Positions 3,341 to 23,569 are shown, numbered from the stretch's first letter. The stretch: DNA of 24,000 nucleotides from an uncultured Vagococcus sp. (GCF_963518325.1 NZ_CAUQJB010000007.1:66388-90387); one strand, 5' to 3'. The notes: generated by a model from the sequence alone, not told the origin. Program-made: numbers and translations.

Positions 3341-3374
3341 TATTAGGTATACTTTAATAGAAAGGAGCAGTCAT

Positions 3375-5267: not shown

Positions 5268-5276
5268 GAGAATGAT

Positions 5277-5585: not shown

Positions 5586-5602
5586 CCAAAGGAGGAAATA
5601 AC

Positions 5603-5929
5603 ATGAACATTTTATTAGTATGTGCAGGTGGTTTTTCAACCACAATGATGATGGAAGAAATGAAGAAAGTAATCAATGGGTCGAAAAAATTGGATATTGC
5701 TGATTTTCCAATGGAAGCAGTAGGTGTAGATCGACTGCCAAACGTGATTGATGATTATGACGTGATTTTAGTTGGTCCCCAGTTAAGTCATAAATTTGAT
5801 TATGTCAAAGGGGAAGGGGATCAACGAAACATCCCAACGGTCTTATTAACATCGGAAATATATGGGGCAATGGATGGGGCAACAGTCGTGAAACAAGCGA
5901 TTTTAGCTTACCGTAAAAATCAAGCTTAG
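5603..5929 (+). CDS. PTS lactose/cellobiose-family EIIB component
   Basis: 108 aa with an AAAGGAGG SD. The N-terminus MNILLVCAGGFSTTMM carries the active-site Cys typical of cellobiose-type EIIB. Confidence 0.9.
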   Translation: MNILLVCAGGFSTTMMMEEMKKVINGSKKLDIADFPMEAVGVDRLPNVIDDYDVILVGPQLSHKFDYVKGEGDQRNIPTVLLTSEIYGAMDGATVVKQAILAYRKNQA

Positions 5930-5940
5930 GAGGTAACAAG

Positions 5941-7281: not shown

Positions 7282-8369
7282 TGATAACTAACCAAATAAA
7301 TCCTAGAGTAGAAAAACTTCAACATTATTTATCAACCCAATCGATTGAGGGGCTGTTAGTAACCGATAAGCCTAATAAATTTTATTTATCAGGCTTTAAT
7401 GGAACAGATGTCGCTCTTTTAATCACCAAAGACCTTTCGTGGATTATTGCTGATGGTCGTTATTTGGAAGAAATAAAAAAAGAAGTAACAGGTTTTAGTG
7501 TGATTGATAATAAGGGAGATATGATTAAGACGCTTGTCTCCCTTGTTAAAGACCAACAGTTAACTTGTTTAGCTGTTGAGGCAGATAATCTAACCCTTAA
7601 GTGGTTTTTGGAGATGCAACATGGATTAAAGGGGCAATGTGACCTCTTTCCGACACAACATATTATTGAGCAGTTACGAATGATTAAAGAGCCAGCTGAA
7701 TTAGCTATTTTAAAAAAGGCAGCTGAACTAACTGATTTGGTCTATGATCATTGTTTGAAAATTACTAAACCAGGAATGACAGAAGCCATGCTTGCGGTTG
7801 AACTTGAACATTATATGAGACAGCAAGGGGCAGATGGTTGTTCATTCGAAACAATCGTTGCTTCTGGTAACCGTAGTGCGATGCCTCATGGTCATGCCAG
7901 TCATAAGTTGTTGGCTAAAGGTGAGCTAGTGACCGTCGATTTCGGCGTAAGGTATCAGGGGTATTATACTGATATGACGCGAACTTTTGCAATAGGCCAG
8001 GTTATGCCTGAATTGAAACATATCTACAAAATTGTCAATCTGGCTGGCTTAAAAGCTTTTGGGGAATTAAAGGCAGGCATGACAACAGGTGATTTGGATC
8101 AGATTTGCCGCGATTATATATATCAGGCGGGTTATGGTGATTATTATAATCATGGTACCGGTCATGGGATTGGCTTAAGTTGCCATGAATATCCCTATAT
8201 TAAAACTGGCTTAACAGAGGTGTTGCAGAAAGAAATGACGTTTACGATTGAACCGGGTATTTATTTGCCCGATTATGGTGGTGTTAGAATTGAAGATGAT
8301 ATTTATTTGAATAGTCAAGGATATGGAGAAAGTTTGACTAAATCAACGAGAGATTGGATTGAATTGTAG
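7281..8369 (+). CDS. M24B-family Xaa-Pro aminopeptidase/dipeptidase (PepP/PepQ/YpdF-like)
   Basis: 362 aa. The ATG overlaps the EIIC stop (TAATG, 7279-7283). All pita-bread metal ligand motifs are present: VTVDFG...YYTDMTRT, HGTGHGIGL, FTIEPGIY, VRIEDDI. Confidence 0.92.
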   Translation: MITNQINPRVEKLQHYLSTQSIEGLLVTDKPNKFYLSGFNGTDVALLITKDLSWIIADGRYLEEIKKEVTGFSVIDNKGDMIKTLVSLVKDQQLTCLAVEADNLTLKWFLEMQHGLKGQCDLFPTQHIIEQLRMIKEPAELAILKKAAELTDLVYDHCLKITKPGMTEAMLAVELEHYMRQQGADGCSFETIVASGNRSAMPHGHASHKLLAKGELVTVDFGVRYQGYYTDMTRTFAIGQVMPELKHIYKIVNLAGLKAFGELKAGMTTGDLDQICRDYIYQAGYGDYYNHGTGHGIGLSCHEYPYIKTGLTEVLQKEMTFTIEPGIYLPDYGGVRIEDDIYLNSQGYGESLTKSTRDWIEL

Positions 8370-9403
8370 TGAAAAAACAATTAATAGACCTCATGAAAGC
8401 TGATGCTATTGCCGGTAGAGAGCAGGAAGTACGAAGAGTCATTATCGATTATTTGACCCCTTTTGATATCAAGTTAGAAAGAGATGGTTATGGCAATCAA
8501 TATGCTTCATTAACTAATGGCAGCCAAAAACCTAAACTAATGATCATCGCCCATATGGATGAAGTCGGATTTATGGTCAAGCATATAACCGCAGATGGGT
8601 TTATTTATACTCAACCTTTTGGCGGCTGGAATTCCCAAGTTGTTTTGGGCCAACGGGTGACGGTGACGAGTAGACAAAAGGGAAGCAAGTATCGAGGTGT
8701 TTTTGGAACGACAGCAAAGAAAGGGCAGAACCCTCAAGAACCAGTGACATTAGGAGAAATGTACGTAGACATTGGCGCCAAAAATCAGAGTGAAGTCGAA
8801 GCTTTGGGCATTCAAGTAGGTGACATGATTACGCCTTCTGGTGAGATCGAGGAGTTACCTAATAATTTGATTTTAGGCAAAGCTTTGGATGATCGGTCAG
8901 GTTGTGTAATTTTACTGGAAGTTTTAAATCGTTTATCAAAAGAAGCACATTTAAATGTGGAAGTTGTTGGAGTCTTTTCTGCTCAAGAGGAAGTCGGTAC
9001 CCGAGGTAGTTTTGTTGCCGCTGCTAAAATCAACCCTTATGAAGCCTTAATTTTAGATGTGGCCACAGCCAAAGACACACCAGGAGCCGATCAATATCAA
9101 AATCGTTGCTTAGGACATGGCCCTGGCATTGTTTGGTTTGATAAGACGGCAGTCTCAGATGTCAAGCTAAGTGATAGAGTGATAGCCATTGCAAAAAAAG
9201 AGGGGATTCCCTTCCAGCACGACGTCTTTGCTGGTGGTGGAACAGATGCAGGTTCGGTACAATTAGCAGGTGGTGGCGTGCCAACTGTCGGATTAAGTCT
9301 CGGTGTTCGCTATTGTCATAGCGGCTCTTCTATCGCTAGTTTAGTTGATATGGAGGCATCAGTCAATCTAATCGTGGCTTATGTAAAATCAATTAATAGA
9401 TAA
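8369..9403 (+). CDS. M42-family aminopeptidase (FrvX/YpdE/PepA/CelM-like)
   Basis: 344 aa. The GTG start overlaps the M24 stop (TAGTG, 8367-8371). M42 motifs are present: AHMDEVGFMV, ALDDRSGC, SAQEEVGTRG, and a C-terminal CHS region. Confidence 0.92.
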   Translation: MKKQLIDLMKADAIAGREQEVRRVIIDYLTPFDIKLERDGYGNQYASLTNGSQKPKLMIIAHMDEVGFMVKHITADGFIYTQPFGGWNSQVVLGQRVTVTSRQKGSKYRGVFGTTAKKGQNPQEPVTLGEMYVDIGAKNQSEVEALGIQVGDMITPSGEIEELPNNLILGKALDDRSGCVILLEVLNRLSKEAHLNVEVVGVFSAQEEVGTRGSFVAAAKINPYEALILDVATAKDTPGADQYQNRCLGHGPGIVWFDKTAVSDVKLSDRVIAIAKKEGIPFQHDVFAGGGTDAGSVQLAGGGVPTVGLSLGVRYCHSGSSIASLVDMEASVNLIVAYVKSINR

Positions 9404-9492: not shown

Positions 9493-10251
9493 CTATTTCT
9501 TGAAGACAGCATAATATAAGCCACCAACCATCACGGCGCCGCCAACAATATTTCCCAGATAGACTGGAATAAAGTTAAGGATAAACTCAGTCCACGTGGC
9601 ACCATTTTCAAAAATAGCTGCGGCAATGATAAACATATTAGCGACACTATGCTGAAAACCTATGGCCACAAAGGTTGTGACAGGAAACCAAATTCCTAAG
9701 TACTTGCCAACCGTATCTTTTGTTCCGTAGCATAACCAAACCGATAGCCCAACGAACCAATTGCAACCAATTCCTGAGACAAAAGCTTGTAGAAAATTGA
9801 CATTAATTTTTGCAGATGCAACTCTTAAGGTTTCATGCAAATAGTCGCCTGTGGCTGTTAAACCAACAATATGGCCAAAAAAATAGGCAACAAATAACGC
9901 ACCAACACTATTAGCCAGAGTAATGATCAAGAAATTCAAGCTTAATTCTTTGGTGGAGACCTTTTTATCAAACCAAGCAGTCGCCACTACAAACATATTG
10001 CCCGTAATTAATTCGCCGCCGCCTAGTAAAATAACGATTAAACCAATTGGGAAAATAGCAGCACCAATCAGACTGGCAAAGCTACCCCATTGTTCCGCAA
10101 TGGAAGAAATAACGCGAATATACGCCAAATAGCCCAAGGAAATCATGGCGCCTCCAATAAACCCTAAGATTAATTTTGCTTTTAGGGGTTTGTTGACTTT
10201 AGCAACCCCTTTTTTGATAGTGATGGCTAGTGTCTCTTCAAGTGAGTACAT
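9493..10251 (-). CDS. Formate/nitrite transporter (FNT) family channel, FocA/NirC-like
   Basis: 252 aa, six TM. FNT signature regions GGGELITGNMF and GFQHSVANMF are present. TGGAGG SD 7 nt upstream. Lies directly downstream of hutU on the same strand. Confidence 0.9.
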   Translation of the reverse strand: MYSLEETLAITIKKGVAKVNKPLKAKLILGFIGGAMISLGYLAYIRVISSIAEQWGSFASLIGAAIFPIGLIVILLGGGELITGNMFVVATAWFDKKVSTKELSLNFLIITLANSVGALFVAYFFGHIVGLTATGDYLHETLRVASAKINVNFLQAFVSGIGCNWFVGLSVWLCYGTKDTVGKYLGIWFPVTTFVAIGFQHSVANMFIIAAAIFENGATWTEFILNFIPVYLGNIVGGAVMVGGLYYAVFKK

Positions 10252-10319: not shown

Positions 10320-12344
10320 TTAGTTGAATAAGTCAGCCACTGCTTTATGGACTTTTTCTTCATCTGTTAGATAAGGAATCGTGATGTGATCCGTGCCCGC
10401 TCTCATCTCATTGTATTCAATCGATGTTTCAATGGCGTGCTCGTTTCGTGCCCAGCTTCTACGGGCGACACCGCCCATTGTATCCCAAGCAATCGCTGAT
10501 TTTATAATCTCATCACACAACTCGCTACCATCTAAGACCATTCCAAAGCCACCGTTTACTGACTTGCCGATGCCAACACCGCCACCATTATGAAGGGCAA
10601 TTAAGCTCATACCTCTTGCAGCATTACCAGCGAAACATTGAGTGGCCATATCAGCGGTGACATTGCTTCCGTCTTTAATATTAGAGGTTTCTCTAAATGG
10701 TGAATCCGTGCCTGAGACATCGTGGTGATCCCGACCTAACATGACGGGCCCGATTTTTCCATCACGAATCAATTCATTAAACTTCAAGGCAATGTTAATG
10801 CGACCCATAGCGTCCTGATAAAGGATACGTGCTTCGGTACCAACTACTAGCTGATTTTTTTCAGCGTCGCGAATCCAATTATAATTATCTCGGTCCTGAT
10901 AACGGCGGTTTGGATCAATGGCTTCCATGGCTGCTTTGTCAGTCGCCATTAAATCTTCATGCTTGCCGCTTAGACAGACCCAACGGAACGGACCGTATCC
11001 ATAATCGAAGAGCATTGGTCCCATGATATCTTCCACATAAGAAGGCCAGATAAAGCCGTCTTTATCATCGACACCATTTTTTGAGATTTCTTTGATACCT
11101 GAGTCGTAGATTGCTTTCATAAAGGAATTACCGTAGTCAAAGAAATAGGTTCCTTTGGCTGTTAATGATTTAATGACATTAAAATGACGTTCCAATGTCT
11201 TATCAACCAAAAATCTAAATTGTGCCTGATTATCTGCTAATAACTGAGTTCGCTTATCGAAGGTGATGCCGATAGGGCAGTAACCGCCTTCATGGACATT
11301 ATGGCAAGAGGTTTGATCCGATAACAAATCGATGTGAACATCGTGCTGATCCATGTATTCTAGCAACTCAACAATATTACCATGGTAAGCGATCGACGTT
11401 GCTTCCTTTTTATCTAGATAGGTTTTGGCAATGGCCACAGCTTCTTCAGGCGTTTTGGCTAAATTGCTAATCCAACCTTGCTCGAGGCGGGTATCGATCC
11501 GGGACATGTCCACTTCAGCGACGATGGTTACAGAGTTGGCAATTTCACCAGCTTTTCCTTGAGCACCACTCATGCCCCCTAAGCCAGAAGTAACAAACAG
11601 TTTGCCAGCCAAGTCACCTTCATCTGGAATACCTAATTTTAAACGACCGGCGTTAAGCAAGGTGTTGAACGTACCATGGACGATGCCTTGGGGGCCAATG
11701 TACATCCAACCACCAGCTGTCATTTGACCGTAATTAGTCACGCCCATTTGTTCTGCAATTTCCCAATCCTCAATATTATCGTATTCTCCTATTAGAAGGC
11801 CGTTAGTAATGATGACACGTGGCGCATCTTTTTTTGATTGGAACAAGCCTAAAGGATGACCAGATTCCACTACTAAGGTTTGCTCATCAGTCATTTCTTC
11901 TAAATAGCGTTTGATTAGGTGGTATTGCATCCAGTTAGAGCAAACTTGGCCGGTTTCGCCGTAAGTAACCAGTTCATAAGGATAGAGCGCCACGTCAAAG
12001 TCCAGGTTATTATCAATCATGACTTGCATAGCTTTGGCTGCCACACAATTTCCTTTGTATTCATCGATGGGTTTACCTTGGATACGTTCAGTTGGGTACC
12101 AACGATAGCCGTAAATCCGTCCTCGAGTGTTTAATTCGTTTAAAAATTCTGGAATCATTTGTTCATGGTATTTTTCTGGAATATACCGCAAGGCATTTTT
12201 TAACGCCAAGGTAGCTTGAGCTTGCGATAAACGAAAGCCCCTATCAGGTGCTCGACGGATACCTTCTTGAAATTTAGGCATATCGGGTAAGACATCCTCA
12301 AGTTTAATCGTCATGGATTTACTGATTTCTACATTGTTGATCAT
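10320..12344 (-). CDS. hutU: Urocanate hydratase (urocanase), long about 675-aa form
   Basis: 674 aa with a GGAGGAA SD. Highly conserved urocanase blocks are present: VTYGETGQV, GLGGMSGAQ (NAD site), YGQMTAGGWMYIGPQGIVHGT, GRDHHD, GGGVGIG. Confidence 0.97.
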   Translation of the reverse strand: MINNVEISKSMTIKLEDVLPDMPKFQEGIRRAPDRGFRLSQAQATLALKNALRYIPEKYHEQMIPEFLNELNTRGRIYGYRWYPTERIQGKPIDEYKGNCVAAKAMQVMIDNNLDFDVALYPYELVTYGETGQVCSNWMQYHLIKRYLEEMTDEQTLVVESGHPLGLFQSKKDAPRVIITNGLLIGEYDNIEDWEIAEQMGVTNYGQMTAGGWMYIGPQGIVHGTFNTLLNAGRLKLGIPDEGDLAGKLFVTSGLGGMSGAQGKAGEIANSVTIVAEVDMSRIDTRLEQGWISNLAKTPEEAVAIAKTYLDKKEATSIAYHGNIVELLEYMDQHDVHIDLLSDQTSCHNVHEGGYCPIGITFDKRTQLLADNQAQFRFLVDKTLERHFNVIKSLTAKGTYFFDYGNSFMKAIYDSGIKEISKNGVDDKDGFIWPSYVEDIMGPMLFDYGYGPFRWVCLSGKHEDLMATDKAAMEAIDPNRRYQDRDNYNWIRDAEKNQLVVGTEARILYQDAMGRINIALKFNELIRDGKIGPVMLGRDHHDVSGTDSPFRETSNIKDGSNVTADMATQCFAGNAARGMSLIALHNGGGVGIGKSVNGGFGMVLDGSELCDEIIKSAIAWDTMGGVARRSWARNEHAIETSIEYNEMRAGTDHITIPYLTDEEKVHKAVADLFN

Positions 12345-12399
12345 CGTTATTTCCTCCTGTTATTTGTATTGGAAAAGTTAAGTTGAAAGTTATACCTCT

Positions 12400-12432
12400 A
12401 TTGTAATACGAGTGAGTCAATAAAATGACTAA
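12400..12432 (-). promoter_or_regulatory. Putative activator-dependent hutU promoter: TTAGtC-N5-aTtGAC-N10-TACAAT (read on the minus strand)
   Basis: Plus strand reads attgta (12400-05), N10, gtcaat (12416-21), aaaat, gactaa (12427-32). The spacing is the same as in the exact copies at 12481 and 18775. The predicted transcription start site (TSS) is about 50 nt upstream of the hutU ATG. Confidence 0.45.
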
Positions 12433-12480
12433 TAATCCTTTTCGGCTTGAATAATTAAAAAAATAAATTTCTTTGCAAAA

Positions 12481-12513
12481 TTAGACGGAAATTAGACTGT
12501 CTAGCCTTATAAT
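12481..12513 (+). promoter_or_regulatory. Putative activator-dependent hutI promoter: TTAGAC-N5-TTAGAC-N10-TATAAT, no -35 box
   Basis: ttagac 12481-86, ggaaa, ttagac 12492-97, tgtctagcct, tataat 12508-13. The sequence at the canonical -35 position (acggaa) does not resemble TTGACA. AAAGGTGA SD and ATG at 12544. Confidence 0.65.
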
Positions 12514-12543: not shown

Positions 12544-13809
12544 ATGTTTGCAGATAAAATTTTAGTTAATTTTAGTCAGATTTTTAGCCCAATTGATAAG
12601 GGAAGACCCTTGAGAGGGAAGGAGATGGCTGAGGCGGTCATTCTTGAAAATGGTTATATCGCCATTAAGGACGGAAAGATACTCGCAATCGGCAGTGGGG
12701 AGCCAGAGGATCAATTAAAAGGTGATTCAACAGTGATTATCGATTATTCTGGCAAACTGGCGTCTCCAGGATTAATTGATTGTCACACTCATTTAGTTTA
12801 TGGCGGTAGTCGAGAAGGAGAGTTTGCAAAAAAATTAAACGGGGTAAGTTACTTGGATATTCTGAAGGAAGGGGGCGGAATTTTAAGTACAGTCAAGGCC
12901 ACTAGAAGTGCCAGTTTTGAGACGCTATATCATAAAACGAATCGACTTTTGGATAAAATGCTGATTCATGGTGTCACAACGGTCGAAGCAAAAAGTGGTT
13001 ATGGCCTGAACTGGGAAACGGAAAAGCGGCAACTAGAAGTAACTAAAACATTAACTAAAGACCATCCAATAGACTTAATTTCAACTTTTATGGCCGCTCA
13101 CGCCATACCAGAACAGTATAAAAATAATCCCGATGAGTTTATTCAATTAATCATTGATGACATGTTGCCAATGGTTAAAGCAGAGAACTTAGCAGAGTTT
13201 TGTGATGTTTTTTGCGAGACGGGAGTTTTTACAGCGGATCAATCGAGAAAACTGTTGACTGCTGCCAAAGAAATGGGCTTTAAACTGAGAATCCATGCAG
13301 ATGAAATTGATTCAATTGGTGGGGTTGACGTTGCTGCTGATCTACATGCCTTAAGTGCGGAGCATTTAATGGCTGCAACAGACGAGGGCATTCGCAAAAT
13401 GAGTGAGGCCCATGTCATTGGAAATGTTTTGCCAGGAACTACCTTTAGTTTGATGGCAGACACCTATGCGCCTGTCAAGAAAATGCTGGAGGCTGGAATG
13501 GCCATTACGCTGTCAACGGACAGCAATCCCGGGAGTTGTCCCACAGCCAACCTACAATTTATCATGCAGTTAGGCTGTTTCAACATGAAGTTAACGCCTG
13601 TTCAGGTGTTTAATGCTGTGACGATTAATGCTGCCTATTCGGTAGCGAGAGGTCAATCAATTGGGAGTTTTGATCAAGGGAAACAAGCTGATATCGCTAT
13701 TTTTGATGCACCAAATGTGGACTACCCATTGTACTTTTTTGCCACTAATTTAGTAACGGATGTCTATAAAAATGGGGAACACGTTGTGAAAAATGAGGTT
13801 CGCCACTAG
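12544..13809 (+). CDS. hutI: Imidazolonepropionase
   Basis: 421 aa amidohydrolase-fold protein. Motifs: [16 protein letters not shown] (HxH metal site), [21 protein letters not shown], and a C-terminal KQADIAIFD. Confidence 0.95.
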
Positions 13810-13822: not shown

Positions 13823-13856
13823 AAAGCTCCATTTAAACTGTAAATGGAGCTTTTTC
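13823..13856 (+). terminator. Rho-independent terminator after hutI
   Basis: Perfect 13-bp stem aaagctccattta (13823-35) / taaatggagcttt (13841-53) with a 5-nt loop and a T-run. Confidence 0.9.
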
Positions 13857-13960
13857 CCATAACTTCTCCTTTGCCCCTATATTTCGAAAGCGTTTTATCG
13901 TAAAATAGGGGGATAGACCGTTAATGATTTTCGGTCGATGTATTTGAGCTTAGGATATGG

Positions 13961-16900
13961 ATGAAAGAAGGTGAGACCTTGAGTAAAGTTGTATACGGTC
14001 AATTATTTGGAAACCCTGAGATTTTTGTCGATGGGAAATTGATGCTGTTTTCATTTACTAAAATTAACGCCCTACTTTATTATATGCTTGTTAACAGGAA
14101 AGTTAGTCGTGACGAATTATCAGGTTTATTATGGCCGGATATGGATGAAAAAAATGCTAAAAAGAATTTACGCAATACGATCTATCAGGCCAATAAAAAA
14201 TTAGGAGGAGACTATATTTGTTCGCCAAACAAATTCGTCTTGAGTTTAAACGATGAGTTAACTATTACAAGTGATGTGGAACAGTTTAAAGACAATCCCA
14301 GCGATAATTTATCCCTCTATGATGATAGTTTTTTAAAAGGCTTCTATTTAAAAGATTGCGAAGAATTCGATGCATGGACAGAGAAAATGCGAAGCTTTTT
14401 TGAGAAAAAATTTCTAAATGAGTGTTTCCGCAATGTCACTCAAGACATTGAGGAAAAACGTTTTGAAATGGTTGAAAAAAAATTACAAAAGTTAATTAGT
14501 CTGGATGAGTACGATGAGCGGCACTATCAATTGCTGATGCGTTATTATTATGAGGTAGATAGACATGAAAAAGTCATCGAAGTCTTTTATCATTTGGCAG
14601 ATGTCTTAAATTCGGAACTAGGAATTGCTCCAAGCCAAGAAACTCGCGATATTTTCGAATGTTCAGTGACGATGGTTAATAAAAATTTAGTGATTAATCG
14701 GCGCTTTACCACTAAATTTTTTGGTCGCATTGAGGAAATTCAATTGTTGGAGGCAAATTTCATCAAATTTAATCACAATGAAATGTGTCAATCTGTTTTT
14801 GTGAAAGGCGATATGGGCGTCGGTAAAACTAGTTTAGTAAACCGAGTCCTAGATAACGCGCCATATTTTCATATACTGGAAACCCAATGCTACGAAGTGG
14901 AAAAGTCTTATGATTTACGAGCTTGGCGTAAAATAGTCAATCAGTTATCTCAGTTAAGTGAGCATTATGGGGTAAGGCCAATACATTGGCAGGGAACCCT
15001 TGATCGTTTTTTTCCTAATATTGAAGATCCGTCGTTGGACAGGACATTTGCAGACGACAAGCATATTGACTTAAATGCATTGTCACAATTATTAATAGAA
15101 GCCATAAGAAAAATCAGTCACTTTAAGAAACTCGTCTTGGTTTTTGAAAATATTCAATGGTTAGATGATATGAGCTTTCAACTGTTGGTCAGTGTTATGC
15201 TGCATCTGAAAAATAAAGAAGGGATCTTTATTTTTACCTCGCGGAACGACATGAATTTAAGGCTTGTGAATTTTTTAACGACAATCAATTGTTATGAGTT
15301 ATTAATCAGCCTTACTCTGGAGCCTTTAACATTGGCCGAAACTCAGGAATTTTCAAGAAATGAACTTCTCAATCAAACACCTTCCCCTGATACCTTAGGG
15401 GAGTTATACCAATTAACGGAAGGGAATTTTTTCTTTTTAACTGAGTATATTAACATGATACGAAATAACGATCAGATTGATATTATGACCGTACGAATGC
15501 AAGATGCTTTGAGAAATCGATTTAGTAGTCTAACAGATGTTGAAATGAAAGTGGTTGAAGTGGTGGCTTACTTTTATGATTATGTTCCTGTGGAGCTATT
15601 GGCGGAAATTGTTAATTTACCTGCGTTTGAATTGGCACAGGCAGTTGAACATTTAGTAAAAGAAAACATTTTATTGGAACTTTTTGTTAGTGACGAAGTC
15701 ATGATTTGTTTTAGTCACAATCGTTTGAGGGAATTTATTTACATGAATCAGATGGTTTCAAAGAAACTCCTTTTGCATAAGGAGATTGCTTGTTTAATGG
15801 AAAAATCTCGAATGAGCAATATTAACGATCATTTGATTTTCGCAAAAATTGCCTATCATTATGAGCAGGCAAAAGAGTGGTTAAAATCGTTGGATTTTCA
15901 GTTACGATATTTGCAAGGTTACTTTAAATTCTATCACGAATTATTTCCGATCAATGCCATTCCAAATGATAGGTTGATGACAAACCCTGATCTTTGGAAA
16001 AAAGGAACCATCAAAGAGTTTGATAAAATTCGGCAAAAATTAGAGGAATTAGCACCTGTTTATCAAGATGATCACAGGTACTTATTATTGGCAATTCGCT
16101 TTTATAATATGGAGGGGCGCTATTTCATTCGTCAGGGAAAATACGAAAAAGGTCTTGAAGACATTCATTACGTCATTCGTGTTTCAAAAGAATTAAATGA
16201 CAGTCACTTTTTATTAGAAGGTTATAAACAAATGATTTATTATTGCATTCAAATTGATAATAGTCGTGAAATGCATGACTACCTTGAATTAGGACTGAAT
16301 GAGGCAATACGCAGCAATAATCATGAGTCTATTGGGATATTATTACGTTTAAAGGGCTTGAACTATTTAATGACAGGTGACTTATACATGGCGGAGCGTC
16401 AATTAACCGAATCAATCAATACCTTCTCTATCACGGATACGATTAAGGATAAATACAGCATTAATATTGCAGCAGCCTATGACTATTTAGCTGAGATTAG
16501 AAGTATTGAAGAAAATTACCCAGAAGCAATTAGACTACAGCAATTAGCGATCGATCTCTGCGAAAACAAAGGGGCATATTCAAGTCTATCTGTCTTTTAT
16601 ATTAATATGGGTGTTATTCTTTTTGGGAATGAGCAGTACTCGGAAGCAAAAATATATTTTGACAAAGCCTATAAGATTTACGAGGAGTTTTCTTCATTGT
16701 GGAAGAGACCCCAGTTAGACGCCTATATGTCTTTAATCAACCTTTATCAAGGGAACTATCAAGCTGTTTTTGTCTATTTAATCAGCTCGAAAAAATACAT
16801 GGAACGATTCGCTAATCCACGAGATATTGGGACTATTTATTTCGCTGAAGCGATGATTAAACGGCAGTTAGTTAAAGAAAACCATCAAGATAATAAGCTT

Positions 16901-17038
16901 TGGGAAATGCTTGATCAAGATGAATTATTTTATTTCAGAAAAGCCTTGGAGTATTTAAGCCCCAACCGAAATAAACTAGAGACAAATTTATTAAAAAGAA
17001 CCTTTAAACCTGAAGAATTAATAAATGGACTTAGATGA
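13961..17038 (+). CDS. Large SARP/AfsR-like transcriptional regulator: OmpR-type winged helix, BTAD, P-loop STAND (AAA/NB-ARC-like) ATPase and C-terminal TPR-like repeats
   Basis: 1025 aa. The winged-helix segment is INALLYYMLVNRKVSRDELSGLLWPDMDEKNAKKNLRNTIYQANKKLG. The BTAD segment is EYDERHYQLLMRYYYEVDRHEKVIEVFYHLADVLNSELGIAPSQETRDIF. Walker A is VKGDMGVGKTSL and Walker B-like is LVLVFENIQWLDDMS. The C-terminal about 400 aa is helical-repeat with Y/A/L periodicity (AAAYDYLAEI, EAIRLQQLAI, AKIYFDKAYKIYEE). The start could instead be the TTG 18 nt downstream. Confidence 0.85.
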   Translation: MKEGETLSKVVYGQLFGNPEIFVDGKLMLFSFTKINALLYYMLVNRKVSRDELSGLLWPDMDEKNAKKNLRNTIYQANKKLGGDYICSPNKFVLSLNDELTITSDVEQFKDNPSDNLSLYDDSFLKGFYLKDCEEFDAWTEKMRSFFEKKFLNECFRNVTQDIEEKRFEMVEKKLQKLISLDEYDERHYQLLMRYYYEVDRHEKVIEVFYHLADVLNSELGIAPSQETRDIFECSVTMVNKNLVINRRFTTKFFGRIEEIQLLEANFIKFNHNEMCQSVFVKGDMGVGKTSLVNRVLDNAPYFHILETQCYEVEKSYDLRAWRKIVNQLSQLSEHYGVRPIHWQGTLDRFFPNIEDPSLDRTFADDKHIDLNALSQLLIEAIRKISHFKKLVLVFENIQWLDDMSFQLLVSVMLHLKNKEGIFIFTSRNDMNLRLVNFLTTINCYELLISLTLEPLTLAETQEFSRNELLNQTPSPDTLGELYQLTEGNFFFLTEYINMIRNNDQIDIMTVRMQDALRNRFSSLTDVEMKVVEVVAYFYDYVPVELLAEIVNLPAFELAQAVEHLVKENILLELFVSDEVMICFSHNRLREFIYMNQMVSKKLLLHKEIACLMEKSRMSNINDHLIFAKIAYHYEQAKEWLKSLDFQLRYLQGYFKFYHELFPINAIPNDRLMTNPDLWKKGTIKEFDKIRQKLEELAPVYQDDHRYLLLAIRFYNMEGRYFIRQGKYEKGLEDIHYVIRVSKELNDSHFLLEGYKQMIYYCIQIDNSREMHDYLELGLNEAIRSNNHESIGILLRLKGLNYLMTGDLYMAERQLTESINTFSITDTIKDKYSINIAAAYDYLAEIRSIEENYPEAIRLQQLAIDLCENKGAYSSLSVFYINMGVILFGNEQYSEAKIYFDKAYKIYEEFSSLWKRPQLDAYMSLINLYQGNYQAVFVYLISSKKYMERFANPRDIGTIYFAEAMIKRQLVKENHQDNKLWEMLDQDELFYFRKALEYLSPNRNKLETNLLKRTFKPEELINGLR

Positions 17039-17080
17039 AATAAGGAACACCTCGTTTTTTACACAAGGTGTTCCTTATTT
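17038..17080. terminator. Bidirectional terminator between the convergent regulator and GlmL-like genes
   Basis: 15-bp arms aaataaggaacacct (17038-52) / aggtgttccttattt (17066-80) with a 13-nt T-rich loop. Confidence 0.75.
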
Positions 17081-17083: not shown

Positions 17084-18466
17084 TTACAAGGGAATCAAAT
17101 ATTTAGTGAGCATCCTAAGAGCTACTTGGGGGTGATGCTCTGCCAATAGTCCTAAAGATGAGACGATATATGATGAATCCAAATAAAAAGCTGGTTTTAG
17201 TGGTTTTAGGTGTTGGGTGTCGGTTTGAAGAGCTGCTTTCAAAATGTTTTTTGGTTGGGAACTATTAATAATGATACCACCAGTTCCGATTAACAGATCA
17301 ATTTGGCGTAAATCCTTTCCTTGCTGATAATACGTATCATGACGAGGGTGGCGTTCTCTTCTTGTAACACCGGCATGACGATCCATCCCAATTGACACGG
17401 CGATTTTAGCCATTAAGTTATCAAAGTCAGACTGGTCTGGAGTACTTGGAATAAAATCGGGATGCTGTTCCCTAAGTAAGCAGTTACGCCTTAATTCAGT
17501 CTCATCGTAGTGATGGTTGCCATAGATATTAAAGTAGTCTGGCCCCGCGGTCTCAAACAAGCTAACGGCAGAATAACGCATCCCTAAATCACCTTCGACC
17601 GTCCTTTTTAGAAATGGTTCAGGTAATCCCTCGTACAGTAGTTGCTGATCGCTAATACTTTCACATGCTGAATGAACATCAGTAGTGGCTCCACCAACGT
17701 CCACAAGAGTTATCTTTCCAAAGCCTGGGATCTTCCCACTGCCTTGAGATAAAAGCTTGACAGCATGGAGAACGGCCATTGGTGTGGGGATAATTGGCGA
17801 ATTACTTAGCTTAGCAATCTGATCAAAGCCTTTCCCATAGATGATTTTTTCAAAAAAAATTCGCCTTAACCTTTCTCTAGTATCTGTGGCTTGTATTAAA
17901 TTGACTTTTGGAAGCACATTTTCTGTCAAATAATAGGTTCTATTCATTAGAATACGTTTTATTTCAGGGGCTGCTAGACGGTTACCTGCCACAATAAGGG
18001 GAATATCTTTGTTTAGGTGCGTCAGCTTTTGAGCACAATCAAGAATAAAAGCAGTATTGCCTCCATCTGTGCCCCCAGTTAGAAGAATAACATCGGGATT
18101 TAATTGATTTATTTTCTGAATGTCTGCTGAAGAAAGGCTGTAGGAGAAGGTTTTTAGTATTCTTGTACCTGCTCCTAAAGCAACTTTTTTTGCAGCAGCA
18201 GTTGTTAAGCTATGGGTAAGACCGATAGCAACCATGTTAAAGCCGCCAAAAGCAGATGAGCAGATTAGGGTTTGATGATTAGGCAGCTGTTCTATCTTTA
18301 AATCTTCAGCCATTTTAGTGATTAGTTCTTGATAGCTATCGAATAAATTAGTCTTACTTTGAGTGTTTACCGTAATATGAGACATGATTAATTCACTTTC
18401 AAGATCAAGTAAAATAGCTTTCGTGTAAGTACTGCCAAAATCGATGGTTAAAACATTGTTTGTCAT
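17084..18466 (-). CDS. GlmL/MutL-family (glutamate mutase accessory or reactivase-like) ASKHA-fold ATPase, with no mutase partner in the window
   Basis: 460 aa with an AAAGGAG SD. ASKHA phosphate-1 motif is LTIDFGSTYTKAI, phosphate-2 is LVDVGGATTDVHS and the adenosine motif is LLIGTGGII. A LLTGGTDGGN segment is also present. Length and motifs fit the GlmL/MutL (and more distantly EutA) group as I remember it. Not verified by search. Confidence 0.7.
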   Translation of the reverse strand: MTNNVLTIDFGSTYTKAILLDLESELIMSHITVNTQSKTNLFDSYQELITKMAEDLKIEQLPNHQTLICSSAFGGFNMVAIGLTHSLTTAAAKKVALGAGTRILKTFSYSLSSADIQKINQLNPDVILLTGGTDGGNTAFILDCAQKLTHLNKDIPLIVAGNRLAAPEIKRILMNRTYYLTENVLPKVNLIQATDTRERLRRIFFEKIIYGKGFDQIAKLSNSPIIPTPMAVLHAVKLLSQGSGKIPGFGKITLVDVGGATTDVHSACESISDQQLLYEGLPEPFLKRTVEGDLGMRYSAVSLFETAGPDYFNIYGNHHYDETELRRNCLLREQHPDFIPSTPDQSDFDNLMAKIAVSIGMDRHAGVTRRERHPRHDTYYQQGKDLRQIDLLIGTGGIIINSSQPKNILKAALQTDTQHLKPLKPAFYLDSSYIVSSLGLLAEHHPQVALRMLTKYLIPL

Positions 18467-18536
18467 TGTAAATCTCCTTTCGTTAAATGAAAATTAAATG
18501 AGAAAATAATTAGTTTTTAATAAGATTTTAGAGTCT

Positions 18537-18569
18537 AATAATAAATAAAAGAATCTAAAAAACGTCAAA
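18537..18569 (-). promoter_or_regulatory. Degenerate proximal copy of the repeat-promoter architecture: TTtGAC-N5-TTAGAt-N10-ATTATT (minus strand)
   Basis: Plus strand reads aataat (18537-42), N10, atctaa (18553-58), aaaac, gtcaaa (18564-69). The spacing is identical to the exact copies. The predicted TSS is about 60 nt upstream of the GlmL-like ATG. Confidence 0.3.
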
Positions 18570-18774
18570 TAACCGGTTAGACTTAAAAAAAATTAGGCAA
18601 TGGTATCTAAACTAAAAATAGGCCCGTCCTTTAAATAGAGAAAACCATCGGATTTGTTCTGGTAATTCGTTTGTCAGTTTTTTTATGGAATCTATATGTC
18701 TAAGGGACGCTTCAAAGAGATTAAGTTCATTTGTTTTTGACGTTTTTTATTGATTGCAAAACAGATTGATGTTT

Positions 18775-18807
18775 ATTATATACCAGGTGCGTCTAAAAAA
18801 TGTCTAA
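18775..18807 (-). promoter_or_regulatory. Exact second copy of TTAGAC-N5-TTAGAC-N10-TATAAT, on the minus strand and pointing toward the GlmL-like gene
   Basis: Plus strand reads attata (18775-80), taccaggtgc, gtctaa (18791-96), aaaat, gtctaa (18802-07). The reverse complement gives TTAGAC ATTTT TTAGAC GCACCTGGTA TATAAT. It lies about 300 nt upstream of the ATG at 18466. Confidence 0.6.
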
Positions 18808-18852
18808 TTTTTATAAGAGCTAAAAAGAGGGATAGTTTTTTTAAGAAAAGTA

Positions 18853-18886
18853 GCGTCTAAAAACAATGAAATTGGCTTTTTAGTCG
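18853..18886. repeat. Imperfect palindrome built from the same hexamer: GCGTCTAAAAA-N12-TTTTTAGtCGC
   Basis: 11-nt arms at 18853-63 and 18876-86 with 10 of 11 positions complementary. Located between the divergent promoters. Confidence 0.5.
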
Positions 18887-18900
18887 CCGTTTATCAGGGT

Positions 18901-18929
18901 TTGACACGAGTTTGCCTGAGTGGTAATTT
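18901..18929 (+). promoter_or_regulatory. Sigma-A type promoter for the folT-ftcD-fchA-fhs-hutD operon (TTGACA-17-TGgTAATTT)
   Basis: ttgaca at 18901-06, a 17-nt spacer ending in TGg (extended -10), and taattt at 18924-29. Confidence 0.55.
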
Positions 18930-19042
18930 GAGAGTGTAGTAGGAAAATAGAAGATTGAAACTAAAAAGAAAGTCACTGTTTGTTCGTGAATAAAGTGTTC
19001 CATGAGTTAGGTGAATTTCTTGAAAAGGAGAGAGTATGTAAG

Positions 19043-19570
19043 TTGAAACGTACAGTTGGTTCAAAAATAAGTGCTAAAGACATTGCCTTATTAGGATTAT
19101 TAGTGGCGATTGAGGTCATTCTAACTCGATTTTTTGCAATCGAAAATTCATTTGTTAGGATTAGTTTCGCTTTTTTACCCTTAATGTTAATGGGGCATTT
19201 ATTTGGACCATGGCTGGCAGGCCTTGGCGGTATCGTTGGTGATATTGTTGGCATGCTAATTTTCCCAAAAGCCATGTTTTTTCCGGGATTTACATTTAAC
19301 GCTTTTCTTATTCCCTTTCTATACGGCGTGATGTTTTACCGAAAAGATATCAATTTGAAACGAATTGTGATGGCCCAATTACTTATTATGGGAATGGTTA
19401 GTCTAGTTTTAACGCCAATCTGGCTGAATATTCTATTCAAGATTCCTATCTTTGAGTTATTGCCTGTCAGACTATTGAAAGAGGGCATTCTTTTTCCAAT
19501 AAATGTCTTCGTCAGTTATTGTCTGTTTAATAAGACCTCCCTTGTGACCGTGATGGAGATGGGAAAGTAA
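19043..19570 (+). CDS. folT: ECF-transporter substrate-specific (S) component, folate family (FolT-like)
   Basis: The track ORF starts at a TTG at 18980. I prefer the TTG at 19043 (MKRTVGSKISAKD...) because AAAGGAGAGAG lies 8-9 nt upstream. The product is about 175 aa with 5-6 TM and has the size and N-terminal layout of an S component (DIALLGLLVAIEVILTRF). It sits directly upstream of three THF-dependent enzymes. Confidence 0.72.
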   Translation: MKRTVGSKISAKDIALLGLLVAIEVILTRFFAIENSFVRISFAFLPLMLMGHLFGPWLAGLGGIVGDIVGMLIFPKAMFFPGFTFNAFLIPFLYGVMFYRKDINLKRIVMAQLLIMGMVSLVLTPIWLNILFKIPIFELLPVRLLKEGILFPINVFVSYCLFNKTSLVTVMEMGK

Positions 19571-19645: not shown

Positions 19646-20545
19646 ATGGCAAAGTTAGTAGAATGTATTCCGAATTTTAGTGAAGGTAGAGATGAAAGCG
19701 TTATAAAGGGGTTAGTTGAGGTCGCTAAAAGTGTCAGTGGCGTTACCTTATTGGATCATTCATCAGATCCCAGTCATAATCGCAGTGTGTTCACTTTAGT
19801 CGGCGATGTTGAAGGGATTCAGGAAGTTGCCTTCAAATTAGTCAGTTATGCCACGCAACACATTGATATGACTAAACAAACAGGTGAACATCCACGGATG
19901 GGAGCAACCGACGTGGTTCCTTTTGTCCCAATTAAAGATATTACCACAGAAGAATGCGTGGAAATATCTAAAAAGGTAGCGAAACGAATTAACGATGAGT
20001 TAGATATTCCGATTTTCCTTTATGAAGAATCTGCGTCTTCACCTGATCGAGTCAACTTGGCACGTGTGAGAAAAGGACAATTTGAAGGAATGCCTGAAAA
20101 ACTAATTCAAGACGAATGGGCCCCTGATTTCGGTAGCAGAAACATTCATCCAACTGCTGGCGTGACGGCCGTAGGCGCAAGAATGCCCCTAGTAGCCTTT
20201 AATGTCAACTTAGACACATCTGATATTACCATTGCCAACAAGATTGCTAAAATTGTTCGCGGTTCTGGTGGCGGGTTTAAGTATTGTAAAGGAATCGGCG
20301 TTATGTTAGAAGACCGCAATATTGCGCAAGTTTCCATGAATATGGTGAATTTTGAAGGAACCCCATTGTATCGTGCGTTTGAGACGATTCGTTTCGAAGC
20401 GAAACGTTATGGCGTTTCAATCATTGGGAGTGAGGTGATTGGTTTAACTCCTGCTAAAGCATTAATTGATACAGCTGAGTATTATTTGCAAATTGAAGAT
20501 TTCGATTATGGAAAACAAGTATTAGAAAATCACTTATTGAATTAG
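19646..20545 (+). CDS. ftcD: Glutamate formimidoyltransferase (formiminotransferase domain only)
   Basis: 299 aa with a GAAAGGAAG SD. The hallmark N-terminus is LVECIPNFSEGRD. Also present: HNRSVFTLVG, HPRMGATDVVPFVP and GARMPLVAFNVNL. Confidence 0.93.
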   Translation: MAKLVECIPNFSEGRDESVIKGLVEVAKSVSGVTLLDHSSDPSHNRSVFTLVGDVEGIQEVAFKLVSYATQHIDMTKQTGEHPRMGATDVVPFVPIKDITTEECVEISKKVAKRINDELDIPIFLYEESASSPDRVNLARVRKGQFEGMPEKLIQDEWAPDFGSRNIHPTAGVTAVGARMPLVAFNVNLDTSDITIANKIAKIVRGSGGGFKYCKGIGVMLEDRNIAQVSMNMVNFEGTPLYRAFETIRFEAKRYGVSIIGSEVIGLTPAKALIDTAEYYLQIEDFDYGKQVLENHLLN

Positions 20546-20564: not shown

Positions 20565-21191
20565 ATGGAATTAGTTGAGTTGAAAGTTAACGAATTTATG
20601 CATGTTTTAGGCTCTGATGAACCGGCACCCGGTGGTGGCTCTGCCTCTGCATTAGCCGCAGCTATGGGAATTTCATTAGTTAAAATGGTAGCAGAACTAA
20701 CTACTGGCAAGAAAAAATACGCTGAGCATGAAACGATGATTCAAGAAGTGTTAGTTGAAGCGACTGACCTACAAGCGATCCTGTTAGATGCCATTGATAA
20801 AGATACCCAAGCATTTAATGTTGTTTCAGCGGTTTTTTCAATGCCTAAAGAAACAGATGAAGAAAAAACTGCAAGGCGAGAAGCAATGCAGTTGGCTTTA
20901 AAAGGGGCAGCTATCTCACCATATGAAATGATGGAAACAATTGTCAGAGGGCTTAAAGTAGTAAAAAAAGCCGTTGGAAAATCGAATGTTAATGCAGCCA
21001 GTGATTTAGGTGTAGCAGCGTTAAACTTGAAGTCTGGCCTACAAGGGGCTTGGTTAAATGTGTTAATTAACCTATCAGGAATTAAAGAAGAGGCGTTTGT
21101 TGACGGCTATCGCGGTAATGGTCAGGCATTGTTAGAAGAAGGATGTCTGTTAGCCGATGAGATTTATGAAGAAATAGTGACCTTAGTTTAG
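20565..21191 (+). CDS. fchA: Formimidoyltetrahydrofolate cyclodeaminase
   Basis: 208 aa with a GGAAGAGGAG SD. The hallmark motif EPAPGGGSASALAAAMG is present near the N-terminus, and the protein is all-helical. Confidence 0.9.
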   Translation: MELVELKVNEFMHVLGSDEPAPGGGSASALAAAMGISLVKMVAELTTGKKKYAEHETMIQEVLVEATDLQAILLDAIDKDTQAFNVVSAVFSMPKETDEEKTARREAMQLALKGAAISPYEMMETIVRGLKVVKKAVGKSNVNAASDLGVAALNLKSGLQGAWLNVLINLSGIKEEAFVDGYRGNGQALLEEGCLLADEIYEEIVTLV

Positions 21192-21216: not shown

Positions 21217-22893
21217 ATGACTTATTTATCAGATATTGAAATTGCCAATCAAGTAAAAATGAAACCGATCAAAAACGTGGCTGATAGCTTAAATTTAGAG
21301 GAAGAGGACTATCAGTTATATGGAAAATACAAAGCTAAATTAGATGCCCTAGAGTTAGAAAAAATGAAGGATCAAAAAGATGGCAAATTGATTTTAGTAA
21401 CAGCAATCACACCAACACCAGCCGGTGAAGGAAAAACAACCACATCAGTTGGGTTGGCAGACGGTTTTACTAAGATTGGCAAAAAAGCGATGTTGGCTCT
21501 GAGAGAACCCTCATTAGGCCCAGTTTTTGGTGTTAAAGGTGGCGCGGCAGGTGGTGGTTATGCCCAAGTTGTGCCGATGGAAGATATTAACCTTCACTTC
21601 ACTGGCGACTTCCATGCGATTGGTGCAGCCAATAATTTATTAGCTGCTTTGTTGGATAATCACATCCATCATGGTAATAGTTTGCAGATTGACAGCCGAC
21701 GTATTACCTGGAAACGTGTGGTTGACATGAACGACCGACAATTACGTTATATTGTGGATGGCCTCCAAGGGAAAGTGAATGGTGTTCCCCGGGAAGATGG
21801 GTATGATATTACCGTTGCTTCGGAAATAATGGCCATCTTATGTTTGGCTAACAATATTGTTGAATTAAAGGAAAAATTACGTAAAATCATTGTTGCTTAC
21901 AATTTTTCTGGCGAGCCTGTCACAGCTGGCGATTTAAAAGCTGAAGGAGCTCTTACAGCTCTGTTGAAAGAGGCCATTAATCCTAATTTGGTACAGACTT
22001 TAGAGCATACACCTGCCTTGATACACGGAGGTCCATTTGCTAATATCGCCCATGGTTGTAACAGTGTCTTAGCCACAAAAATGGCTTTAAAATATGCTGA
22101 CTATACGGTAACAGAAGCTGGCTTTGGCGCAGATTTAGGGGCTGAGAAGTTTATTGATATTAAATGCCGCTTGGCTGATATTCGACCTGATGCAGTTGTC
22201 TTAGTGGCTACTATCCGAGCCTTGAAGATGCATGGAGGTGTTCCTAAAAATGAGCTTGGTGAAGAAAACATTGATGCAGTGATCAAAGGTTTGCCAAACT
22301 TGGAAAAACACTTGGCTAATATTCAGGATGTATACGGTTTGCCAGTGGTAGTTGCTATTAATAAGTTTCCAACAGATACTCAAGCTGAATTGACAGCCGT
22401 TGAGGAAGCTTGCAAAGAACGTGGGGTGGAAGTCGTCTTATCCGAAGTCTGGGAAAAAGGTGGTAATGGTGGCGTAGCCTTGGCTGAGAAAGTCGTTGAA
22501 TTAGCTGACCGCGATAACACCTTTAGTTACGTTTATGATTTGGAAGACAGTATTGAAGAAAAACTGAACAAGATTGTCCGCAAAGTATATGGTGGGACAG
22601 GTGTTGAATTAACCAAAGTAGCCCGTCGTGAAATGGCTGAATTGGAGCGTTTAGGTTTTGGGAATTTACCAATCTGTATGGCCAAAACTCAATATTCATT
22701 CTCCGATGATCCAACTTTAATCGGTGCGCCCCAGGATTTCACAGTGACCATTAAAAATATGAAAGTGTCGGCTGGAGCAGGTTTTATTGTCGCTTTAACT
22801 GGTGCGATTATGACGATGCCTGGTCTGCCTAAATCACCAGCCTCTGAACGAATCGATGTGGATGAAAATGGTGTAATCTCTGGCTTATTTTAG
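21217..22893 (+). CDS. fhs: Formate--tetrahydrofolate ligase (10-formyl-THF synthetase)
   Basis: 558 aa. Motifs: SDIEIA N-terminus, P-loop [59 protein letters not shown]. Confidence 0.97.
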
Positions 22894-22902: not shown

Positions 22903-23502
22903 ATGAAAATAAGGACTATTAGCAAAAAGGACTATCGTGTTTCAACTTGGAGTGGGGGAGAGACTCAGGAATTGTTTCTCTTCCCAGTCCAGGGAACTTA
23001 TCAAATTGGTCAGTTTGATGTTAGACTATCCAGTGCCACTGTTGAATTGGCAGAAAGTCTTTTCACAAGTCTGCCTGGCTATCAAAGAGTCATTATGTCC
23101 TTGGATAACCCTTTAAGTTTGAGTCATCAAGGGAATGATAGTAAAAGGATGGTAGATTTAATGCCTTTTATCTCCCACCATTTTTCAGGAGAGGATCAAA
23201 CAACGTCAATTGGTAAGTGCAGAGATTTTAATTTGATTTATCGTGATGGTTTAGCTGGCGAATTAGTGGCTTGCTATCAAAAGGAGTCAGTCGTGATTAA
23301 GTCCGACGAGTTTGTCTTAGTTTATGCCCTTGAAGAAATTAGAGTCGAAATTTTTCAAGGACATCAGGTGACACATGCTCATTTAAAGAGAGGTAACAGT
23401 GTGGTTATTGAAGAGGTTACTGAGAATTGTTGGTTAGTGTTAACAGCCAAGAACAGAACAGAGAAACCAATAGCAGTCGTGGCAAGTATTAGCGAAAGTT
23501 AA
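22903..23502 (+). CDS. hutD: HutD/Ves-family protein (cupin-like, DUF886)
   Basis: 199 aa with an AGGGGTGA SD. The N-terminal STWSGGETQELFLFP matches the W-x-G-G-x-T-x-E signature of HutD. The hut context supports the call. Confidence 0.65.
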   Translation: MKIRTISKKDYRVSTWSGGETQELFLFPVQGTYQIGQFDVRLSSATVELAESLFTSLPGYQRVIMSLDNPLSLSHQGNDSKRMVDLMPFISHHFSGEDQTTSIGKCRDFNLIYRDGLAGELVACYQKESVVIKSDEFVLVYALEEIRVEIFQGHQVTHAHLKRGNSVVIEEVTENCWLVLTAKNRTEKPIAVVASISES

Positions 23503-23569
23503 GAGTGTTTTATTTGTAACCGATTTCAATAAAGCGAATCATTTCTGTTTTTTTGAAGGGAGAAAACTT

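Follow-up and report, generated by a model that had tools for sequence, protein, structure and literature searches.

Regulators with a SARP domain follow a common operator rule, in which direct repeats lie 11 bp (or 22 bp) apart, the 3' repeat and the -10 element stand ~8 bp apart, and the -35 region is overlapped (PMC10936776). AfsR of Streptomyces coelicolor (PDB 8K60, 8HVR, 8JKE) has the domain order SARP, NOD and TPR, and ATP binding is reported to enhance its activity (PMC10936776). In the PimR-type SARP-LAL regulators of Streptomyces, the SARP domain is fused to a large ATP-binding region of LAL/AAA_16 type (PMC3367932), and the PimR boxes are 22 nt long, with two 7-nt repeats and 4-nt spacers (PMC5930380). 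The gene considered here also encodes a SARP-NOD-TPR protein. It lies at 13961..17038 (+) in a 24,000-nt stretch of DNA from an uncultured Vagococcus sp. (NZ_CAUQJB010000007.1:66388-90387), referred to below as the window, among genes for histidine catabolism (hut). The protein is a member of a family that is widespread in the Bacillota and whose genes nearly always stand beside hut genes. It probably switches these hut genes on by binding two conserved DNA repeats in their promoters.

The Vagococcus regulator resembles several described systems in part. The SARP domain of AfsR superposes on its residues 1–250 (TM 0.68, E 5e-9) at an identity of only 17%, and the AfsR operator is similar in its two direct repeats, 11-bp periodicity, overlap with the -35 region and abutment to the -10 element. 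In contrast to AfsR, the NOD is of the AAA_16 rather than the NB-ARC type, the host belongs to the Bacillota, and the predicted targets are primary catabolic genes. No kinase partner is evident in the window. The combination of a SARP domain with an ATPase of AAA_16 or MalT-LAL type makes the PimR architecture the closest class, the two proteins being set side by side by description. The periodicity of the PimR boxes, 11 bp, is also that of the boxes described below; however, PimR, an actinomycete protein, regulates antifungal biosynthesis, has only one target gene and uses another repeat sequence. EmbR of Mycobacterium tuberculosis (2FEZ, 2FF4) provides the best structural and sequence match to the winged helix and BTAD (E 3.5e-9, 22% identity), but is controlled by phosphorylation, carries a C-terminal FHA domain and lacks both NOD and TPR. 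The STAND ATPases GutR (Bacillus subtilis) and MalT (Escherichia coli) have a C-terminal repeat sensor and turn on a catabolic operon in response to inducer and ATP (PMC10936776). This is the same regulatory logic as is proposed here, with GutR compared by description, although the GutR and MalT targets are sugar or polyol genes rather than hut genes, and MalT lacks a SARP domain, its DNA-binding domain being of the LuxR type and C-terminal.

To our knowledge, three kinds of hut regulator are known: the HutC repressor, the HutP antiterminator and the IclR-type HutR of Corynebacterium. HutC, a member of the GntR family, and HutP, an RNA-binding antiterminator, exert pathway-specific control of hut genes in response to histidine or urocanate (PMC12977541, PMC2425495). 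HutC and HutP perform the same biological job, but their folds and their mechanisms (repressor and antiterminator) are unrelated to those of the Vagococcus protein. None of the HutC, HutP and HutR kinds is encoded in the hut clusters considered here.

The regulator and its family

Two start codons can be considered for the regulator gene. The open reading frame from ATG 13961 encodes 1025 aa, whereas a start at TTG 13979 gives 1019 aa. The latter is favoured because a ribosome-binding site (GAAGGTGAG) lies just 5' of it, the RefSeq protein WP_314062145.1 (uncultured Vagococcus sp., identical sequence) has 1019 aa, and the N-termini of homologues correspond to MSKVVYGQLFG. Judged from these features, the true start is probably TTG 13979 and not ATG 13961. 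The gene reported in a first-pass annotation of the window is real, but the 1025 aa assigned to its product are likely to be 1019. No other open reading frame of at least 80 aa is present on either strand over 13961..17038.

The N-terminus consists of a predicted OmpR-type winged helix-turn-helix (residues 8–104; 13982..14272, +) and a BTAD that is helical in the model (residues 105–241; 14273..14683, +). Pfam places the BTAD (PF03704) at residues 114–231 with E 6.4e-12 and 46.5 bits against a cut-off of 22.1, and finds no match to Trans_reg_C in the regulator or in any of 36 family members. An AlphaFold2 model of residues 1–250 built separately (pLDDT 94) has a beta-sheet, three helices and a wing hairpin; in the winged helix these correspond to strands at residues 10–14, 20–23 and 26–28, helices at 33–45, 50–57 and 63–81, and a hairpin at 93–104. 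In a Foldseek comparison of this model with the PDB, only EmbR (2FF4, 2FEZ) and the AfsR SARP domain (8K60, 8HVR) match significantly (E 3.5e-9 to 4.7e-8, TM 0.65–0.68, ~255 columns). They account for all of the top six matches, and the next match has an E of 0.017. A family profile search finds AfsR (8k60) at E 3.3e-5 and EmbR (2fez) at E 2.4e-4. Single-sequence phmmer against the PDB returns nothing for the full-length regulator, and for the N-terminus alone the best match is EmbR at E 0.045, which is sub-threshold with a colinear alignment. On the fold and family-profile matches, and despite the silence of Trans_reg_C, the modelled N-terminus is a genuine SARP domain of winged helix and BTAD, the former being visible in the model by structure alone and not by Pfam. 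The first-pass annotation had proposed an N-terminus of the DNA-binding winged helix-BTAD type, and the fold comparison bears this out. The complete order given there (winged helix, BTAD, Walker A and B, TPR) agrees with Pfam and the model, with the reservation just made for the winged helix. The predicted recognition helix (AKKNLRNTIYQANK) hardly varies among family members, and residues R50, W58, K68, N69, R71 and Y75 of the winged helix are invariant in the family alignment.

The central STAND module (residues 252–598; 14714..15754, +) contains a nucleotide-binding domain, a helical domain and a winged-helix domain in the model. Pfam matches AAA_16 at residues 252–416 (E 1.6e-16), and both BTAD and AAA_16 are matched in all 36 family members. 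The P-loop is intact: the Walker A sequence VKGDMGVGKTS (nt 14807-14833, +) includes an invariant GxxGxGK, with G286, G288 and K289 conserved in all 36 homologues. The Walker B sequence LVLVFENIQWLDD (nt 15128-15166, +) follows the family pattern hhhhFE(D/N). Its second acidic residue is replaced by Asn (FEN in the regulator versus FED in the family), which suggests nucleotide binding with slow hydrolysis. The first-pass annotation gave the domain order as that of AfsR-type large SARPs, and this needs correcting for the ATPase: the module is of the AAA_16/MalT-LAL type and not of the NB-ARC type found in AfsR, and NB-ARC is matched only weakly, in 14 of the 36 members.

The remainder of the protein (residues 599–1022; 15755..17026, +) is the presumed sensor, an all-helical arm and TPR superhelix that extends to the C-terminus. 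The model shows helices throughout, TPR_12 is matched at residues 836–909, and 29 of the 36 family members match TPR_MalT. Conserved motifs in this region include YKQMIYYxIQ, NNHExIGILLRLKGL and NIAAAYNYLGEIR, and Y755, Q757, Y761, Q764, R796 and Y832 are among the conserved TPR residues. The full-length AlphaFold2 model, built with the 36-sequence alignment (mean pLDDT 85), has its best PDB match in 6mfv, a STAND protein with a TPR sensor (E 5e-15); Apaf-1 and CED-4 come next.

Other class assignments were considered and set aside. The label 'LuxR family' found in some sources is unsupported, since Pfam scans detect no GerE/LuxR-type domain in the regulator or its family; GntR and HutP are also unmatched in the regulator. 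Classification as a MalT/LAL protein was rejected for want of a C-terminal LuxR-type helix-turn-helix. The protein is not an AfsR orthologue either, with a score of 13.2 bits for NCBIfam NF053617 (cut-off 1430) and AAA_16 in place of NB-ARC.

Homologues with a colinear full-length alignment form 459 clusters at 50% identity (E <=1e-30). Among the sources named are the lactic acid bacteria and relatives Vagococcus, Isobaculum, Enterococcus gallinarum, Carnobacterium, Granulicatella and Streptococcus (S. pyogenes included), as well as Peptoniphilus, Anaerosphaera, Oscillibacter, Sporomusa, many species of Clostridium, Neobacillus and Lentibacillus. Linkage was assessed in the window and 35 further loci (36 sequences in total, with homologues of 25–83% identity and 10-kb flanks), whose taxa include Vagococcus, Enterococcus, Streptococcus, ~20 Clostridium species, Peptoniphilus, Neobacillus and Sporomusa. 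At least one of hutU, hutI, hutH and ftcD lies within 10 kb of the regulator homologue in 34 of these, and the two sequences with no nearby hut genes are contigs ~6 kb long. The regulator gene is divergent from, convergent with or downstream of the hut operons, depending on the locus, and gene order and orientation vary widely. This variation indicates functional linkage rather than inherited synteny, and the association with hut genes first noticed in the window is upheld across the sample.

In the Sporomusa locus (L033), a second, small BTAD-containing gene (14113-14880, 255 aa) and a GntR/FCD regulator gene occur between the large regulator gene and hutH-hutU. These extra regulators suggest layered regulation in the Negativicutes.

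Predicted operator boxes at hut promoters

The intergenic region between hutU (urocanase; 10320..12344, -) and hutI (imidazolonepropionase; 12544..13809, +) contains two promoters with repeat boxes. The hutI promoter (12481..12513, +) consists of TTAGAC (12481-12486), 5 nt, TTAGAC (12492-12497), 10 nt and TATAAT (12508-12513). It is located 31 nt 5' of the hutI start codon, with a predicted transcription start at ~12520, and the block is kept in V. allomyrinae, where the adjoining spacer has diverged. With AAATTAGACNN taken as the 11-bp unit, the 22-bp box of this promoter (12478-12499) stands exactly 8 bp from TATAAT. The hutU promoter on the other strand (12432..12400, -) carries a degenerate box, with TTAGTC (12432-12427), 5 nt, ATTGAC (12421-12416), 10 nt and TACAAT (12405-12400). 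This box scores 23.5–25.8 bits with a position weight matrix (PWM), whose match is placed 92 nt 5' of hutU. The degenerate copy lies 56 nt 5' of the hutU start codon, has a predicted transcription start at ~12393 and is also kept in V. allomyrinae. In the predicted 5' untranslated region of hutU, a conserved block, AAAGTTAAGYTGAAAGTTAT, at 12374-12394 has one mismatch in V. allomyrinae and diverged flanks.

Two further boxes precede the MutL/GlmL-like gene (17084..18466, -). The distal promoter (18807..18775, -) repeats the arrangement seen at hutI, with TTAGAC (18807-18802), 5 nt, TTAGAC (18796-18791), 10 nt and TATAAT (18780-18775); it has a PWM score of 35 bits and a predicted transcription start at ~18768, and is kept in two other loci (L001 and L028). 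The proximal box (18569..18537, -) is weaker at 18–19 bits. It reads TTTGAC-N5-TTAGAT (18569-18553) followed by an A+T-rich stretch resembling a -10 element, lies 107 nt 5' of the start codon, and includes a block, AAAAGAATCTAAAAAACGTCAAAT, that is identical in L001. The regulator gene therefore does lie, as first described, between two exact repeat-promoters of the form TTAGAC-N5-TTAGAC-N10-TATAAT, at 12481-12513 (+) and 18807-18775 (-), and the hutI and distal MutL-like copies are the only exact occurrences of TTAGAC-N5-TTAGAC in the window. With up to two mismatches the pattern occurs eight times against 1.8 expected, a number reached in none of 100 shuffles. The TTAGAC hexamer itself is present in 21 copies against 10 expected, eight of them inside the two intergenic regions. 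A generic promoter scan of the window gives no enrichment (31 sites, 30 expected).

The SARP operator geometry is found at the hutI, MutL-like and, in degenerate form, hutU promoters, and is kept in 27 sequences. In the alignment with V. allomyrinae, the boxes and their -10 elements stand out as conserved islands in diverged spacers. None of the hutI, hutU and MutL-like box promoters has a -35 hexamer at a spacing of 16–19 bp, and taking the TTGAC-like distal repeat as the -35 element would leave a spacer of ~20 bp.

Six of the 21 exact TTAGAC hexamers fall within the 514-bp intergenic region 18467-18980. The leader between the two MutL-like boxes is flanked by a 14-nt inverted repeat, with TAAAAAACGTCAAA at 18556 and the complementary copy at 18736. 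Extra binding sites or looping may occur in this region.

The boxes recur in other genomes. A pattern derived from the window (18 specified positions, up to four mismatches) was searched in 29 other loci, where it matches 28 of 98 upstream regions in hut clusters versus 6 of 162 other upstream regions. Each of the six 'other' matches adjoins the regulator gene or the first gene of a string that leads on to hutH and encodes M20 peptidases, an ABC transporter and unknown proteins. The PWM finds 61 sites, compared with 0–1 in shuffled loci. With six loci added there are 64 sites, 44 of which lie within 450 nt 5' of hut-cluster genes, in 27 sequences. By downstream gene, these belong to hutU (19), ftcD (12), the MutL-like gene (5), hutI, hutH and the permease gene (2 each), and cyclodeaminase and hutG (1 each). 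In the most distant members, from Peptoniphilus, Neobacillus and Sporomusa, the boxes are found 76–92 nt 5' of ftcD or hutU. The shared consensus is approximately nTAGACGTTTTnnnGACG-N9-TATAAT, and a single motif of this kind fits the near-invariance of the recognition helix in the family.

Several Clostridium loci have a strong SARP box (30–34 bits) 5' of a gene of 275–284 aa with no Pfam match, which heads a string leading to hutH (L002 14963-15817; L003 16974-17801; L004 13592-14419). This gene is possibly a new regulon member, and a transporter or accessory protein would be a candidate function.

The regulator gene itself is insulated from its neighbours. The first-pass annotation gave it terminators of its own on both sides, and both are recovered, with z-scores of -6.7 to -8.4 (folding versus shuffled controls). 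The intrinsic terminator 3' of hutI (13823..13853, +; -17.4 kcal/mol, z -6.7) is kept in L001 and isolates the regulator gene from the hutI promoter. Beyond the gene, a bidirectional terminator (17038..17080) serves the convergent regulator and MutL-like genes, with -23.7 and -26.1 kcal/mol (z -6.7 and -8.4). A conserved 26-nt block 5' of the gene, TTTCGAAAGCGTTTTATCGTAAAATA (13882..13907, +), is identical in V. allomyrinae; within it are a cre-like core, GAAAGCGTTTT, and TAAAAT, which resembles a -10 element. The block is probably the gene's own promoter or control site. It has no SARP box, and in none of 29 loci does the window-derived pattern find one 5' of the regulator gene. Autoregulation through a SARP box was accordingly rejected; an ATAGAC stretch at 13913 is not kept in V. 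allomyrinae.

Proposed mode of action and alternative explanations

With good confidence, we regard the regulator as a pathway-specific activator of hut genes, in which a pair of SARP domains on the repeats would act directly at the hutU, hutI and MutL-like promoters under the control of inducer and ATP. The two SARP domains would sit side by side on direct repeats of (T/A)T(A/T)GAC, 11 bp from start to start, placing the end of the downstream repeat 10 bp ahead of a good -10 box. As the box promoters have no -35 hexamer at a workable spacing, the bound dimer is proposed as a -35 substitute. It would replace the contact between sigma region 4 and the -35 element and recruit RNA polymerase, in a manner like the 'sigma adaptation' shown for AfsR. 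The NOD-TPR portion would be autoinhibitory, and binding of ATP together with histidine, urocanate or a later metabolite of the pathway would lift the inhibition; ATP-dependent oligomerisation, suggested in the first-pass annotation, would form part of the same switch. The family most likely represents an inducer- and ATP-gated class of hut activator.

Several observations weigh against this proposal. In Vagococcus and Enterococcus, the folT-ftcD-fchA-fhs-hutD operon has a conserved canonical promoter and no box in its own orientation. In the window this promoter consists of TTGACA (18901-18906) and TAATTT (18924-18929), separated by 17 bp of which the last three are TGG; this extended -10 promoter (TTGACA-17-TGgTAATTT) is kept in V. 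allomyrinae. A conserved solitary GTCTAA (18855-18860) lies 41 bp 5' of it. Downstream of this operon come the permease gene and, if the order is that of L001, hutH, and with no box in front of the operon part of the pathway may be under other control. The Oscillibacter locus gave no box, and nor did the three streptococcal loci, in which the promoter upstream of hutU falls outside the 10-kb flank covered. Refinement of the PWM used its own matches, so that the independent parts of the operator evidence are the test of the window-derived pattern and the positional enrichment. ATP hydrolysis by the regulator may also be weak, given FEN in place of FED.

The distribution of boxes bears on a second explanation, in which the protein is an activator mainly for the formimino/one-carbon branch (ftcD, fchA, fhs and folate uptake) or for the MutL-like gene, and senses formiminoglutamate or folate. 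Its predicted targets give this some appeal, as ftcD is the second commonest with 12 sites, the MutL-like gene has two boxes in the window, and the Neobacillus gene lies in a folD-FNT-folT-folC-ftcD-fchA-fhs cluster that has a box 5' of ftcD and neither hutU nor hutH within 10 kb. However, the commonest target is hutU, with 19 sites, and boxes are also found at hutH, hutI, the permease gene and hutG. Within the window, boxes precede hutU and hutI but not, in the same orientation, the ftcD operon. A role confined largely to this branch is therefore unlikely.

The position of the boxes raises the question of whether a repressor or dual regulator could use the same sites, occluding the spacer between the -35 and -10 elements until inducer releases it. 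The box overlaps the core promoter, at approximately -39 to -23 from the predicted start, and the -10 boxes are perfect or near-perfect TATAAT sequences that might fire unaided. In contrast, an unaided promoter would lack the -35 hexamer at 16–19 bp, the distal repeat offering only the ~20-bp spacer noted above. The BTAD/SARP fold is that of known activators, the box occupies the same position as the AfsR and PimR operators, and head-to-tail direct repeats are the arrangement of SARP activators. Classical repressors are more often found on palindromes. We consider repression through these boxes very unlikely, and activation the better account of their geometry.

It is extremely improbable that the protein is a STAND NTPase with a non-transcriptional role, such as an Avs-like defence sensor that merely lies beside hut genes: although the full-length fold search also gives Avs4, Apaf-1 and plant NLRs, a place among the anti-phage STAND proteins (Avs and similar) was rejected for lack of a PADLOC match and of an effector domain, and a SARP DNA-binding domain, strict hut linkage across Bacillota classes and a conserved hut operator would be unexpected for a defence gene.

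The hut cluster and significance for Bacillota

The window holds a complete hut cluster of the formimino type. In addition to hutU, hutI, the regulator gene and the MutL/GlmL-like gene, it comprises a gene for an FNT formate channel (9493-10251, -), an ECF S-component resembling folT (18980-19570, +), ftcD (19646-20545, +), cyclodeaminase (fchA; 20565-21191, +), fhs (21217-22893, +), a hutD-like gene (22903-23502, +) and the start of an amino-acid permease gene (from 23571, +). In the closest relative (L001), hutH follows the permease gene. All open reading frames of at least 80 aa in the cluster are assigned, and no other regulator is among them. An unrelated operon 5' of the cluster (3279-9403) encodes a PRD-containing regulator (662 aa), phosphotransferase system components IIA/IIB/IIC, a protein resembling Xaa-Pro peptidase and one resembling M42 peptidases. 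An Rfam scan of the whole window finds no riboswitch, including no tetrahydrofolate riboswitch 5' of the folT-like gene.

The FNT channel gene is directly 3' of hutU, as it is in L001 and L026, and this position fits export of formate from the FtcD-FchA-Fhs branch. In Vagococcus, Enterococcus and Peptoniphilus (the window, L001, L026, L028 and L030), the MutL/GlmL-like gene (PF13941, E 1.5e-138) and the regulator gene stand tail to tail, and one or two SARP boxes lie 5' of the former. PF13941 is known as the family of an accessory protein of glutamate mutase; genes for glutamate mutase itself are not seen in the window.

A perfect catabolite-responsive element (cre), TGTAACCGATTTCA, occurs at 23515-23528, between the hutD-like and permease genes, and a second copy, differing at one position, is present at 19693-19706, just within ftcD. 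Matches resembling cre are not enriched in the window (31 versus 28 expected), and no CcpA sites are found in the hutU-hutI and MutL-like/folT intergenic regions. One might speculate that uptake and the hutH step are under catabolite control, with hutU and hutI dependent on the activator.

A literature search found no description of a SARP/STAND hut regulator, and hut goes unmentioned in a regulon reconstruction for lactic acid bacteria. The first-pass annotation held the regulatory logic to be new for hut genes. This stands in so far as no such regulator was found in the literature searched, but the logic itself is established for GutR and MalT (PMC10936776). In working like large SARPs, GutR and MalT, the regulator is of a kind already known.

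In streptococci, few operons are induced in vivo as strongly as hut, and in S. pyogenes its induction in necrotising fasciitis exceeds log2 6.4 (>80-fold), with no regulator named (PMC6803311). If the proposed mode of action is correct, the family would be a fourth kind of hut regulator and would explain how histidine catabolism is switched on in streptococci, enterococci and many Clostridia. In many Clostridia, urocanate metabolism feeds imidazole propionate production. On the same condition, SARP regulators would not be confined to actinomycete secondary metabolism, and the protein would offer a tractable SARP-STAND system with the obvious candidate ligands that AfsR still lacks. More tentatively, with the chances a little short of even, the family could be the long-missing dedicated hut activator of many Bacillota, including S. 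pyogenes, gut Clostridia and enterococci, with a TPR-NOD portion that directly binds a histidine-pathway metabolite. On this reading, no STAND regulator of the SARP type would earlier have been given a defined small-molecule ligand together with control of primary amino-acid catabolism outside the Actinobacteria. The predicted 22-bp operator and concrete regulon make the idea directly testable, with relevance to pathogens and gut anaerobes.

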